This document shows positions 5,141-12,195 of a stretch of DNA of 15,743 bases, one piece after another. The translations under genes were made by a program, and so were the position numbers. The notes beneath the pieces were generated by a model. The model was not told the DNA's origin, ran no database searches, and worked only from the letters and a program-made list of their open reading frames with translations. The DNA is taken from the NCBI RefSeq assembly GCF_006345805.1, contig NW_021825285.1:1-15743 (forward strand), given 5' to 3'. This stretch comes from Octopus sinensis. Taxonomy: Eukaryota. The first letter of the stretch is position 1. Each line of letters opens with the position of its first letter.

Positions 5141-5947
5141 GGGTCTTTTCGGTTTGACCGGCAGTTTTTTAAAAATAATTTCTAGGTAACTAAAAAAATT
5201 TCGAACTTCGTATACTGGTAGAATGTGTTTATAAAACATCTTTTTTCTCTTGGCTTTATTGAGAAAATTCTATAGTTTGTAAGATATTTGTTGCTTTTTT
5301 TTTCTTCACTTTCTGCAATTTCAACCAATCAATGACGTCTATTGAGGTAAAAAAAAAAAACATTCTGTGCCGTATGAATATGTCCCTCGTTTAAGAAACA
5401 GATTGGGTCTATTTACATTTGTGAAGAAAAAAAGATACCCTTCCCCCCACCCCTAACCCTAACCCTAAAACAGATTGAAATGCAATAGATCGATTCTAGG
5501 GTCATAATTATGGGTGACAATTTCATATGACACCGCTGGGAAAAACTGCTGTTCAAACCGAAAAGATCCCCTAACCCTAACTAACCCTAAAACAGATTAA
5601 AATGCAATAGATCGATACTAGGGTCATAATTATGGGTGACAATTTCATATGACACCGCTGGGAAAAACTGCTGTTCAAACCGAAAAGATCCCCTAACCCT
5701 AACTAACCCTAACCCTAAAACAGATTAAAATGCAATAGATCGATACTAGGGTCATAATTATGGGTGACAATTTCATATGATACCGCTGGGAAAAACTGCT
5801 GTTCAAACCGAAAAGATCCCCTAACCCTAACTAACCCTAACCCTAAAACAGATTAAAATGCTATAGATCGATTCTAGGGTCATAATTATGGGTGACAATT
5901 TCATATGACACCGCTAGAAAAAACTGCCGTTCAAACCGGAAAGATCC
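5141..5947. mobile_element. MITE with 30-bp TIRs and 8-bp TSD (Merlin- or hAT-like)
   Basis: Left TIR GGGTCTTTTCGGTTTGACCGGCAGTTTTTT (5141-5170) vs reverse complement of 5918-5947, 27/30 identical. GAATCTTT duplicated at 5133-5140 and 5948-5955. Confidence 0.88.
5451..5947. repeat. Tandem array of four ~119-128-bp units, each with CCCTAA repeats and a right-TIR copy
   Basis: Units end in AAGATCC at 5569, 5691, 5819 and 5947. Confidence 0.93.
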
Positions 5948-6998: not shown

Positions 6999-7002
6999 AA
7001 TT

Positions 7003-7519
7003 AGCTTAATGACCACCTCGAGAACCCAGTTTCCATAACAACTGTTCGCCGGGAGCTGCACAAACCCGGATTTCATGGGAGGGTTGCAATCAGAAAACCA
7101 CTACTTTCAAAAACATACTTTGCAAAGCGCTTAGAGTGTGGAGTAAAAACCTACAGAATTGGTCCCTAGAGCAGTGGAAGAATGTTCTTTTCTTGGACGA
7201 GTCATCCTTTACCATATTTCCAAAGTTTACGTGTGGAGACAGCCAAAAGAAGCATTTGACCCAGACTGCCTTCTTCTAACTGTTCAACATGGAGGAGGAT
7301 CTGTGATGATCGGGTGTGTGTGTGTGTGGGGGGGCTATATCTCAGAAATCCACCGGTTCAGTGGTTTCCATTCGTGGCAGGATTATTTAAGCATTTTATC
7401 GGATCAAATTCATCCTATGGTTGCGAAACTGCTTCCGGAAGGAAGCGCAATCTTTCCGGATTCACAAAGCTAAAATTGTTACTGAATGGCACGAGGAACA
7501 TTCTAGTGAAGTTGAACAT
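7003..7519 (+). pseudogene. Internal fragment of the same Tc1-family transposase as 9499-11021
   Basis: Inverted copy of about 10035-10571. Encodes VYVWRQPKEAFDPDCLLLTVQHGGGSVMI and ILSDQIHPMVAKLLPEG, with frameshifts and deletions. Confidence 0.9.
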
Positions 7520-7541
7520 GGAGTGCTTCTTTTGGAACAGT

Positions 7542-7596
<55 letters not shown>

Positions 7597-7696
7597 TATT
7601 GATAAAAATGGTAAGACAACAAAAGAATGAAAGAGACCTCGATATTATGTAAAAAGAGAAATTTATCTGTAAATGTGACAATTATTCGGTAGCCAT

Positions 7697-7757
7697 GATA
7701 AAACTCCGAGTTTCGGATGCTGAGGTGGAAATCCACGCCGCCATCTCTTCAGTTATC
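7697..7757 (-). ncRNA. Type I hammerhead ribozyme motif
   Basis: Minus strand GAUAA-CUGAAGA-GAUG...GUGGA(UU)UCCAC...CAUC-C-GAAA-CUCGGAG-UU-UUAUC. Stem I GAUAA/UUAUC. One extra C at the base of stem II. GUU triplet. Confidence 0.65.
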
Positions 7758-7834
7758 AGGCCATCGGAAAAAAATGGTATGAAAATGACTGTTATATACA
7801 CTCGGAGTTTTATCATGGCAACCAAATAATTGTC

Positions 7835-7863
<29 letters not shown>

Positions 7864-7868
<5 letters not shown>

Positions 7869-8508
7869 CTAAATTCGGTGTGTGGTGAGGCAAATCGTTG
7901 CTAAACCCTTAATTACTTAGTATTACTTAAACTTTCCTCAAATGGGGCTTTTACATGCCGAAATCTACATGGTGAAATTAATGATTATTCTAAATTAATT
8001 AATTTCTCCCTACATTATTACTGATAACCATAGTTCATCCCGGTAAATGACCACAACATCTTGTCTTGGCTGCACGCTGGTAGGAGGGGGCTGGTGACAC
8101 AGACTTTCATTCACACTTTGAATTTGGCGATACTAGTAATGGCTTTGGCTCGCTCTGATACTATCAGTTGAGATGATGTCTTCTAGTACCGCGAAATTTA
8201 ATATACAATTATTCATAATTGTAATATCCTACGCTGATGAGAAAAGAAGTTGGGTAAGACAAGATTATCTAATCCTTATGCTTTCCTAAAACTTGATTTC
8301 GAAACGTACGTCCGTAGGTGACTTTTTATTGTATGATCGATTGTCGTCATTTTCTCTCTCTTGCCTGTCTGTGTTTGCCTTTCAAGTGCTGTGGTTTTAC
8401 TGAGATCTCCCTTTTAGTAGAAAGGAATAGCTATAACTCTTTGACTGCTATTTCTAAATTCGGTGTGTGGTGAGGCAAATCGTTGCTAAACCCTTAATTA
8501 CTTAGTAT
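7864..8508 (+). mobile_element. Retrozyme/Penelope-like non-coding element: 585-nt unit with 60-bp terminal direct repeats and an internal hammerhead
   Basis: 7864-7923 is identical to 8449-8508. (TA)n on both flanks. No ORF of 60 aa or more. Hammerhead at 8228-8318. Confidence 0.75.
8228..8318 (+). ncRNA. Type I hammerhead ribozyme with intact core
   Basis: CCUACG-CUGAUGA-GAAA...UUUC-GAAA-CGUACG-UC-CGUAGG. Stem I 6 bp perfect, stem II GAAA/UUUC extended by AAGUU/AACUU, palindromic stem III. Predicted cleavage after GUC at 8312. Confidence 0.85.
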
Positions 8509-8781
8509 ATATACATATATATATATATATATACGTGTGTGTGTGTGTCTCTTAAGCATTGTGAGACTAATAACCTAGTGTAGAACCAATATACATGTTT
8601 CAGAACGGCACCCCATCTGTCGAGAGATGAATGTTATTTACTAAGGCACAATACATGTTTTTATATGCGACTCATAGTTTCATACGTTGAAAAATATCCC
8701 AAAACATATTCATCAGGCACAAAACAAATATAGCAAACTAAAAACTGAATGAGAGAAGAAACGCGACAAGTTGAGATGGAA

Positions 8782-9181
8782 GGCAGACACGTTAGCGCGC
8801 CGGGCGAAATGCTTAGCAGTATTTCGTCTGTCGCTACGTTCTGAGTTCAAATTCCGCCGAGGTCGACTTTGCCTTTCATCCTTTCGGAGTCGATAAAATA
8901 AGTACCAGTTTCGCACTGGGGTCGATGTAATCGATTTAATCCGTTTGTCTGTCCTTGTTTGTCCTCTCTATGTTTAGCCCCTTGTGGGTAGTAAAGAAAT
9001 AGGTATTTCTGTTTTTACGTTCTGAGTTCAAACTCCGCCGAGGTCGACTTTGCCTTTCATCCTTTCGGGGTCGATAAATAAAGTACCAGTTACGCACTGG
9101 GGTCGATGTAATCGACTTAATCCCTTTGTCTGTCCTTGTTTGTTCCCTCTGTGTTTAGCCCCTTGTGGGCAATTAAGAAAT
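8782..9181 (+). mobile_element. tRNA-derived SINE family B, dimeric (head + two ~181-bp units)
   Basis: B-box-like GAGTTCAAA at 8843 and 9024. Central GTCGACTTTGCCTTTCATCCTTTCGG domain twice. Tail ...CCCTTGTGGG..AAGAAAT twice. Confidence 0.9.
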
Positions 9182-9549: not shown

Positions 9550-10832
9550 TTTAATACAGCTTGGATTCTACGAGGTATGTACTCGTACACTCATGCTCCA
9601 GAGCGTCGGCTGCGGGGTCACTCCGAAAAGCTCTATCTGCGACCATTTCATCTCATTCGAAGGAGAGGGGCTTTCTCCGTCCGGGTTGCGGATCCGTGGA
9701 ATAAGCTGCCGGACGGGATAGTGAAGATGCCGACGACCGCTCGGTTCAAAGTCTCTCTTGACCAGAAATGGCCTGAACTCTTTACATGAACACCCTCCCT
9801 GTACATAACTCCATGTCCCCCTACATGGCCTTGCTTTTTGCTTTTTGAGCCAAAAAATTAACTTAACAAAGTTTGAATCGTTTCCAAAGGAATTTTTGTG
9901 CATTCTTCAGCTAAAACAGTCTCCAGTTCTTGTAGTGACGATGGTGGAGGATATTGACTCCTTACTTTTTTTTCTAAAATGCACCATAAATGTTCAATAA
10001 TATTGAGATCTGGGGACTGTGGTAGCCAGATAAGATGTTCAACTTCACTAGAGTGTTCCTCGTGCCATTCAGTAACAACTTTAGCTGTGTGAATTGGTGC
10101 ATTATCACCCGTAAAGATTGTGTTTCCTTCCGGAAGCAGTTCCGCAACCACTGGATGAATTTGATCAGATTAAATGCTTAAATAGTCTTGACTATTAATT
10201 CGGTCATGAATGGAAACCATTGGGCCGGCGGATTTCTAAGATTAGCCCCCACCAGATCATCACAGATCCTCCTCCATGTTTAACAGCTGGAAGAAAGCAG
10301 TCTGGGTCAAATGCTTCTTTTGGCTGTCTCCACATGTATACTTGGCCGGTGGCCGGAAATAGGGTAAAGGATGACTCGTCCGAGAAAATAACATTCTTCC
10401 ACTACTCTAGGGACCAATTCTATAGGTTTTTACTCCACTCTAAACACTTTGCAACGTTTGTTTTTGAAAGTAGTGGTTTTCTGATTGCAGCCCTCCCATG
10501 AAATCCGGCTTTGTGCAGCTCTTGGGGAACAGTTCTTGTGGAAACTGGGTTCTCGAGGTGGTCGTTAAGCTCTGCAGTAATTCGGGGAGCTCTACTTTTG
10601 TGATCCTTTCTAACAATTCGCGAAGGATTTCAAAGGCCCTATCTCTAGGTTTTGGGGTTTTTCCGGAGTTTTGTTTCGACGAGAAGGTTTTTCTCTCTTT
10701 CTCGAAAGCTGTCATTACTTTCGAGACAGTAATTCTAGACACACCAAGCATTTCGGCAGTTTTCGTTACGCTAGCGCCTGTCATACGAGCATCAACAATT
10801 TGACCTCTTTGAAAGTTCGATAGATCTGTCAT
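9550..10832 (-). pseudogene. Tc1-like transposase pseudogene (DD36E), frameshifted and LINE-interrupted
   Basis: N-terminal HTH region MTDLSNFQRGQIVDARMTGASVTKTAEMLGVSR. Motifs VIFSDESS, GDNAPIH and WLPQSPDLNIIEHLW. C-terminal YEYIPRRIQAVL continues left of the LINE insert. Confidence 0.9.
9590..9867 (+). mobile_element. 5'-truncated CR1-group LINE 3' end inserted in the transposase
   Basis: Encodes RGHSEKL...FSVRVADPWNKLP...FKVSLD, typical of the CR1/L2-group ORF2 C-terminus. Stop at 9787-9789, short 3' UTR, TTAAC-repeat tail, ACA at both junctions. Confidence 0.82.
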
Positions 10833-11033
10833 TTTGATGCATTTTAATTACATTTTTCTGATGATATCGGAAAGGAAACGGCAATTTTAGCAAAACGTAT
10901 TAAGCAAAACTAATAATTAATCAAAAAATATTAAAATAAACAAGCTTTTGACGGTTTTATAGATATTTCAAAATTATGATGCTACGATGCTTGGTGTTCC
11001 CATTGTTTTGTCCAAGCCCTGTATATATATATA

Positions 11034-11432: not shown

Positions 11433-11608
11433 TATATATAATACCGTATGAATGGAATTCAACAAGCGTAAATTTTGTTAACGCTTGTTGTCTCTTTGTT
11501 TGTATGTATGCATGTCTATCTACCGATGAGTCTAACTCCCTGCATAGCCGTATAACTGTTTCTATATGTATCTATTTGTCAATCTGCTTATCTCTCTATT
11601 TTGTATTT

Positions 11609-12195
11609 ATTTCTTCATTGCCCACAGGGGGCTAAACATGGAGGGGACAAACAAGGATAGACAAACGGATTAAGTCGATTATATCGACCCCAGTGCGTGA
11701 CTGGTACTTATTTAATCGACCTCGAAAGGATGAAAGGCAAAGTCGAGCTCGGCGGAATTTGAACTCAGAACGTAACGGCAGACGAATTGCCTATTTCTTT
11801 ACTACCCACAAGGGGTTAAACACAGAGAGGACAAACAAGGACAGACAAACGGATTAAGTCGATTATATCGACCCCAGTGCGTGACTGGTACTTATTTAAT
11901 CGACCTCGAAAGGATGAAAGGCAAAGTCGACCTCGGCGGAATTTGAACTCAGAACGTAGCGGCAGACGAAATACCTATTTCTTTACTACCCACAAGGGGT
12001 TAAACACAGAGAGGACAAACAAGGACAACAAACGGATTAAGTCGATTATATCGACCCCAGTGCGTAACTGGTACTTATTTAATTGACCCCGAAAGGATGA
12101 AAGGCAAAGTCGACCTCGGCGGAATTTGAACTCAGAACGTAGCGGCAGACGAAATACCGCTAAGAATTTCTCCTGGCGTGCTAACGTTTCTGCCA
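11609..12195 (-). mobile_element. SINE family B, trimeric (head + three ~184-bp units)
   Basis: GAACTCAGAAC at 11761, 11945 and 12128. Head TGGCAGAAACGTTAGCACGCC at the right end. Confidence 0.92.

Follow-up and report, generated by a model that had tools for sequence, protein, structure and literature searches.

A 585-nt hammerhead-bearing repeat of Octopus sinensis, a candidate non-LTR retrozyme present as 1.1 units in a TA microsatellite

Described hammerhead retroelements and the octopus locus

Non-LTR retrozymes, or non-autonomous Penelope-like elements (PLEs), have been described in mussel, coral and vertebrates (PMC7229834; bioRxiv 10.64898/2026.07.22.740005). Those of mussel, coral and axolotl form circles, with PLEs as their proposed movers (PMC7229834), and both the class and the model of reverse transcription over more than one unit are already published (PMC4209133; PMC7229834; bioRxiv 10.64898/2026.07.22.740005). 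PLE enzymes cut AT-rich DNA and start within the RNA at two sites (PMC11167929), and microsatellites are favoured by PLE insertions (PMC8557442). In Octopus vulgaris 190 PLE families have been reported, 31 of them recently active (PMC13282606); in the excerpts of that paper and its supplement the words 'hammerhead', 'ribozyme' and 'retrozyme' do not occur. Since cephalopod Naiads are inactive remnants (PMC8557442), a partner PLE is more likely to belong to another clade. No report of a cephalopod retrozyme or hammerhead was found in the literature, the search of which did not extend to subscription papers, Repbase/Dfam and supplements, where the family may be held under another name.

The window, that is the whole stretch of 15,743 nt of O. 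sinensis DNA analysed here, contains an insert at 7864-8508 with one type I hammerhead ribozyme motif and a redundant 60-mer at its ends, flanked by two further hammerhead modules. The features are as follows.

7599-7837, minus strand: left module, TA-bounded, with a hammerhead at 7696-7758 (CUGAAGA core, 6-bp stem I, UU site)
7838-7863, no strand: left (TA)n microsatellite, the presumed insertion target; its run of TA extends over the initial letters of the insert
7864-8448, plus strand: 585-nt non-coding unit, 37% GC, strong predicted self-pairing
7864-7923, plus strand: first copy of the 60-mer; inferred stop of reverse transcription (5′ end of the insert)
8020-8032, plus strand: alternative 3′ end of the family, behind which three contigs of run X3 leave the unit into (TA)n
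8228-8318, plus strand: type I hammerhead; stem I 8228-8233/8313-8318, core 8234-8240 and 8301-8304, predicted cut after 8312
8241-8300, plus strand: stem II domain of 60 nt; 4-bp helix, AG/GA internal loop, 5-bp helix, apical hairpin
8304-8311, plus strand: palindromic stem III; 2 bp plus tetraloop in the monomer, 8-bp duplex in the dimer
8449-8508, plus strand: second copy of the 60-mer (terminal redundancy); 8508 is the inferred start of reverse transcription (3′ end of the insert)
8509-8533, no strand: right (TA)n microsatellite
8546-8760, minus strand: right module, ending in (CA)n(TA)n, with a hammerhead at 8664-8721 (5-bp stem I, 7-bp stem II, UC site)

In common with animal non-LTR retrozymes, the element is non-coding, has a GC content below 50%, carries one type I hammerhead per unit and shows strong predicted self-pairing; head-to-tail units, solo copies and a PLE-rich host are likewise shared. 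The known mollusc retrozyme, that of mussel, measures 350-390 nt (PMC7229834), and the octopus unit of 585 nt lies above the 150-450 nt given in PMC7229834 but within the 51-972 nt of bioRxiv 10.64898/2026.07.22.740005. It differs from animal non-LTR retrozymes by its 60-nt stem II, by an insert of 1.1 units with one ribozyme, by the TA microsatellite and by the cephalopod host, its circle and its cleavage being putative. A retrozyme is regarded as 'active' where tandem repeats with at least two complete hammerhead units occur (bioRxiv 10.64898/2026.07.22.740005); the present locus holds 1.1 units, and in the four aligned runs described below no contig spans two whole units or two ribozymes.

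With endonuclease-bearing PLEs and their pseudo-LTR hammerheads the element shares the type I motif with palindromic stem III and the partial-tandem insert (PMC4209133, PMC8557442, PMC11167929). They also agree in a target of AT-rich DNA or microsatellites, in 3′ ends at more than one site downstream of the ribozyme and in variable 5′ truncation. In contrast to these PLEs, it has no reverse transcriptase (RT) or GIY-YIG frame. Minimal PLE hammerheads are marked by an extra base after position 9, a stem II of 7-8 bp and a stem I of 4-5 bp (PMC4209133), whereas the octopus element has no extra base, a stem I of 6 bp and a first stem II helix of 4 bp; its two 3′ ends lie 109 nt apart, compared to a PLE tail of 30-40 nt. 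Plant LTR retrozymes resemble the element in a unit of several hundred nt, a hammerhead, terminal direct repeats and a proposed circular intermediate (bioRxiv 10.64898/2026.07.22.740005, PMC7761336). However, their hammerheads, as described there, are of type III and lie within fixed LTRs, and they have PBS, PPT and target duplications of 4 bp, whereas the octopus ribozyme is of type I and located outside the repeat, and the ends vary; the element does not belong to the plant type.

As judged from its sequence, the element would work like an animal non-LTR retrozyme or non-autonomous PLE, of which it is a candidate member. What sets it apart is its occurrence in an octopus, a unit of 585 nt, a stem II of 60 nt and permuted copies targeted to TA; it is no new class.

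Structure of the insert, its ribozyme motif and its surroundings

The 60 bp at 7864-7923 recur at 8449-8508 with zero mismatches, the period is 585 and the match is not extendable on either side, in agreement with the exact terminal direct repeats of the preliminary description. The (TA)n reported there on both sides was found at 7838-7866 and 8506-8533, and both insert junctions share 1-3 letters with the adjoining TA run. The unit has a GC content of 37% and thus the <50% GC trait of animal non-LTR retrozymes. That the element is devoid of an ORF was likewise borne out: there is no stop-to-stop frame of at least 60 aa inside it, and 0 of 14 short frames (25-51 aa, drawn from the 16 listed as wholly or almost wholly inside the element) matched Pfam. 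By the frame list and Pfam, the RT and GIY-YIG frame of an autonomous PLE is absent from the element, and no tRNA genes were found in the window.

A hairpin is located at 8469-8492, about 16 nt before the right end of the insert, and a hairpin near the 3′ end is the Helitron end pattern. Together with the AT-only insertion context and the head-to-tail joints described below, it would fit a DNA-level rolling-circle or satellite-type repeat, either Helitron-like or from an extrachromosomal circle, whose hammerhead is incidental. The ends of the element do not match TC...CTRR, however, the RNA-level motif is preserved, and among the copies the 5′ ends are scattered and the 3′ ends lie at two or more sites, which makes such an origin very improbable.

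The complete type I hammerhead at 8228-8318 was confirmed with an intact core. Stem I comprises 6 bp between 8228-8233 and 8313-8318, the core consists of CUGAUGA at 8234-8240 and GAAA at 8301-8304, and the stem II domain of 60 nt in between (8241-8300) begins with a canonical G-C pair and a 4-bp helix. Stem III is the palindrome ACGUACGU at 8304-8311, with a GUC site and a predicted cut after C8312. With a 6-bp stem I, a 4-bp stem II with basal G-C and a 2-bp stem III the proportions are canonical, and 1 of 3000 dinucleotide-shuffled versions of the element yielded a hammerhead as good as this one (5 of 3000 a looser motif). The Rfam covariance models returned no hammerhead at E<=1 in the window or at E<=10 in 7590-8790; the remaining Rfam matches in the window were dismissed as microsatellite or hairpin noise. 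Published core searches used a 7-17-nt spacer, and eight Naiad 'half cores' lie 35-50 nt apart (PMC8557442).

In the predicted ensemble, pairing probabilities are 0.92-0.98 for stem I, about 0.77 for the base of stem II and 0.0 for stem III, and the active hammerhead fold is predicted to lie 3.8 kcal/mol above a competing fold that pairs the core with the cleavage strand. Because the palindrome at 8304-8311 is unfavourable as a monomer hairpin (+2.4 kcal/mol) and favourable as a two-molecule duplex (-9.8 kcal/mol), cleavage would likely be better in a dimer than in a monomer. Folded as a circle, the plus strand of the 585-nt unit reaches -155.7 kcal/mol with 63% of it paired, compared to -122.6 +/- 6.6 kcal/mol for 100 shuffles (z = -5.0), none of which is as low; the minus strand has z = -1.9, and five control stretches range from -2.9 to +0.8. 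In these models the unit has the retrozyme trait of a stable, highly self-paired circle, to which covariation (see below) adds no overall backing.

Besides this motif the window has just two hammerheads, at 7696-7758 and 8664-8721, both of type I and on the minus strand, and each lies in a separate module bounded by microsatellites; any hammerhead at all was obtained in 0 of 2000 shuffles of 7591-8790 and in 0 of 200 block shuffles of the window. The end of the left module at about 7802-7836 repeats 7676-7710, with its own ribozyme half, in inverted form. Such an inverted copy at the end is the layout described for PLE insertions (PMC8557442), and the module resembles a Penelope-type end that carries a truncated copy in inverted orientation. 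In the left hammerhead, stem II ends with one additional base, and ahead of the right module lies a pyrimidine-rich stretch that may contain splice acceptors. Taken together, these findings suggest that Penelope-type machinery has used the site as a landing pad on three occasions.

Further repeats surround these modules. Two broken, opposite copies of a Tc1/mariner family are found at 7000-7540 (plus strand) and 9858-10850 (minus strand), with arms that are 91% complementary; the latter gives HTH and DDE_3 Pfam matches, and the former breaks off at (TA)n. A 128-nt unit that starts with the telomere-like CTAACCCTAACCC is repeated in tandem about 3.9 times at 5453-5947. Tandem arrays at 875-1288, 8835-9181 and 11608-12158, with units of 139 nt and 181-184 nt, are presumably octopus SINE-type repeats, the second and third being of the same family in opposite orientation. 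A 79-aa frame at 9550-9789 gave no Pfam match; it seems to resemble the C-terminal part of a protein from a CR1/RTE-type LINE. Translation of a further repeat in the window yields a segment with 86% identity to a predicted protein of Octopus vulgaris, the species named in three of the five matches, which supports an octopus origin.

Copies of the element in public sequencing runs

The family was surveyed in assembled contigs of public runs, four of which were aligned to the element at 85% likeness; X1 and X3 are DNA runs, and X2 and X17 are taken as RNA by guess only. None of the listed runs with the element is registered as RNA. Individual contigs mentioned below are examples drawn from the 32 of 3268 pieces and 24 of 193 loose ends that were listed and do not represent frequencies. 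Part of the element was present in 20 of 24 listed runs (10 studies, 4 coded organism labels), the best share being 0.58. Per run, 1990 element contigs were counted in X1, 1157 in X3, 42 in X2 and 49 in X17. The counts in the DNA runs X1 and X3 show that the sequence is not single-copy, an outcome that would have spoken against the preliminary description. The aligned contigs show 99 variable places plus several deletion forms; the element family is many-copy and diverse.

Some contigs are near-identical to the present copy, with 0 of 135, 1 of 143, 1 of 111 and 1 of 76 letters different. Because of these 0-1 differences over 76-143 nt, the copy is assigned on sequence grounds to a young subfamily. 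The recent insertion that had been proposed from the identical repeats is weakly founded on them alone, as 0 differences in 60 bp bound the divergence only below 4.9%, and its youth stands on the near-identical contigs instead.

Many contigs cover just the junction block or continue into unlike sequence, and there are loose ends, both upstream and downstream, that are related but diverged; in addition, the two neighbouring hammerhead modules resemble plain PLE ends. On these grounds the element could have arisen from an abundant autonomous PLE by internal deletion, or be an end-piece of one (pseudo-LTR plus tail), with the 585-nt form as a rare by-product rather than a family in its own right. 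We regard this as improbable, since all 30 bins of the element are covered in each of the four runs, long contigs from diverged subfamilies either keep to the unit over 310-397 nt or swap its middle for sequence of similar length, and a coding remnant was not found in the element. Summed contig depth peaks around the junction and both halves of the ribozyme core, 13- to 57-fold over neighbouring bins; as contig depth cannot rank parts of the element, these peaks were not counted as evidence. The X1 joints 7914 to 8401 and 7917 to 8083 are deletion derivatives of the unit; in the first, the entire ribozyme would be missing, and what remains would be a mini-unit of about 100 nt that surrounds the junction.

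The 60-mer itself occurs in hundreds of contigs per DNA run, those fitting both of its places numbering 462 of 1990 in X1 and 271 of 1157 in X3. The border 7923/7924 is bridged by diverged contigs in X3 (record 25, 7881-7989, 15 differences) and X2 (record 17, 7874-7977), and the border 8448/8449 by one in X1 (record 8, 8404-8491), in each case with at least 31 letters on either side. By its sequence context the 60-mer is internal to the family, a terminal redundancy of a permuted unit. Long target-site duplications are known for animal retrozymes (PMC7229834), and the two copies are identical, as they would be in a 60-bp duplication of host DNA around a 525-nt insert; this is hardly credible, however, and was rejected because diverged contigs join the 60-mer to both of its inner neighbours.

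Consistent with permutation, a 260-nt X2 contig (record 20) runs through 8410-8493 and on to 7955-8097, head-to-tail past the redundancy, and an X2 loose end ahead of 7864 equals window 8435-8448. In the DNA run X1 a joint leads from 8465 to 7910; read as head-to-tail, it indicates that the junction probably exists in DNA too, and the RNA junction is therefore no proof of a circle. The ends also differ between copies. Three X3 contigs depart from the unit behind 8032 into (TA)n, while unrelated upstream sequence precedes 8087 in X3 record 29 (0 differences over 8087-8221) and 8387 in X1 record 7. TA flanks, 3′ ends at 8508 and 8032 and 5′ starts at 7864, 8087 and 8387, each from few contigs, constitute a Penelope-type pattern. 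In the DNA runs 37 and 47 contigs run past the ends of the aligned stretch, and there is a hint that junctions with TA recur among copies. Of the permuted or tandem copies with variable terminal redundancy for which the preliminary description proposed to look, head-to-tail contigs and differing ends are seen, and the fixed ends that would have told against it are not what the listed contigs show, the 3′ ends lying at 8508 and 8032 and the 5′ ends being scattered.

Conservation of the hammerhead among copies, as had been expected, is found in part. No change of the core is present among the 40 of 99 variable places listed, and the long stem II is retained in a 13%-diverged contig (X2 record 19, 7941-8337), the 60-nt stem II being a family trait. 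The expected covariation did not appear: the predicted pair is broken at 11 of 24 paired variant sites, where 52% would be expected (P = 0.2), and among the 40 of 99 listed places just one pair showed compensation (P = 0.4). The pair 8263-8274 is G-C in this copy, A-U in most DNA contigs and G-U in X2. A variant 8318 G>A, at 6% to 88% of depth depending on the run, would break the outer pair of stem I unless compensated among the 59 variable places outside the listing. A possible intron at 8318-8387 (GT...AG, pyrimidine tract) was rejected, as no contig has a matching joint and a common variant removes the GT. A hammerhead pattern scan of viral contigs gave 0 loci, and two pattern matches in metagenome contigs were rejected as chance, their similarity to the element being confined to 13-21 nt around the pattern; they are without direct repeats, have GC contents of 52% and 60% and by eye lack stem I.

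Cephalopod genomes consist of repeats to about two thirds, and cephalopod RNA is heavily edited. The X2 junction contig (record 20), of depth 5 and with a 13-nt deletion, differs from window 7909-7941 by six changes in 33 letters (compared by eye), all of them T>C. Given the spectrum of changes in DNA, the chance of six out of six T>C is about 1e-5, and 4e-4 to 2e-3 for any single change type. Changes of T>C only are the pattern of A-to-I editing by ADAR on minus-strand RNA, which suggests that X2 is a true RNA run and that the contig is an A-to-I edited antisense read-through of a genomic tandem copy rather than a circle of the ribozyme strand. A far more speculative reading, to which we give very little credence, is that the 585-nt RNA is a viroid-like circle also copied from RNA to RNA in octopus cells, the edited minus-strand head-to-tail contig being a replication intermediate modified by the highly active ADARs of the octopus, and that edited circles are written into TA microsatellites by a Penelope enzyme. 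If this were true, RNA-level variation would feed into the genome, and long-stem-II hammerheads would be a class missed by standard searches.

Proposed route of copying and its implications

Contigs, frame scans and motif together support the earlier proposal of a multi-copy, non-coding, hammerhead-bearing element of retrozyme or Penelope type. The element is very probably non-autonomous and copied by a Penelope-type RT/endonuclease, with a nick in (TA)n, an internal start on the RNA and a variable run length. With a more evenly balanced confidence we propose that the insert is a young 1.1-unit copy of a non-coding octopus repeat, namely a non-LTR retrozyme moved by Penelope-like enzymes from a probably circular RNA. 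Along this route, loci with two or more units would be transcribed, and the hammerheads are predicted to cut after 8312, probably aided by the pairing of two palindromic stems III; the 585-nt monomers freed in this way would be closed by a host ligase. A Penelope-type GIY-YIG endonuclease would then nick a (TA)n tract, and the RT would begin within the RNA at preferred sites via TA microhomology, at 8508 = 7923 in the present copy and at 8032 elsewhere. The copied length would vary, most runs halting early to leave 5′-truncated copies, whereas the run that gave this insert would have gone once round plus 60 nt, by which the ribozyme is restored in the middle of the element between identical ends.

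A linear monomer cut at 8312 is excluded as template, because the present copy extends across the cut site and is longer than one unit. Of the earlier suggestion that the 1.1-unit insert derives from copying a circle of about 585 nt, the longer-than-unit template stands; the circle does not follow from it, since an uncleaved linear tandem predicts the same insert, and one insert does not decide between circle and uncut tandem transcript. In the linear case the same Penelope-type element would be copied from an uncleaved tandem transcript, with an internal start in the second unit and a stop 645 nt later, the hammerhead being a slow or protein-assisted passenger and circles having no role. We consider this a possible, if tentative, alternative. 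For the Anolis PLE, the one Penelope-like enzyme assayed in vitro, uncleaved linear RNA is the main template, on which it initiates internally without processing, and ribozyme mutants had no effect on insertion (PMC11167929); similarly, most of the Xenopus retrozyme dimers assayed in vitro (8 of 9) remained uncleaved (bioRxiv 10.64898/2026.07.22.740005). The head-to-tail joint in the DNA run X1 and the 3.8 kcal/mol by which the active fold is disfavoured point in the same direction. The circular template is favoured, on the other hand, by the canonical shape of the ribozyme, which has the proportions of circle-forming retrozymes unlike the minimal PLE form, by the strand-specific folding, as the ribozyme strand of the unit folds far better than chance, and by the precedent in mussel.

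If confirmed, the retrozyme moved from circular RNA would extend circle-forming retrozymes to cephalopods, and a hammerhead with a 60-nt stem II, missed by Rfam and by searches with a 7-17-nt spacer, could stand at the centre of a large family. Since Rfam misses a long stem II and such spacer searches would miss it as well, elements of this kind may be undercounted. Moreover, dispersed and permuted copies with measurable ends would make the choice between circle and uncut-tandem templating by Penelope-type enzymes testable with one genome.
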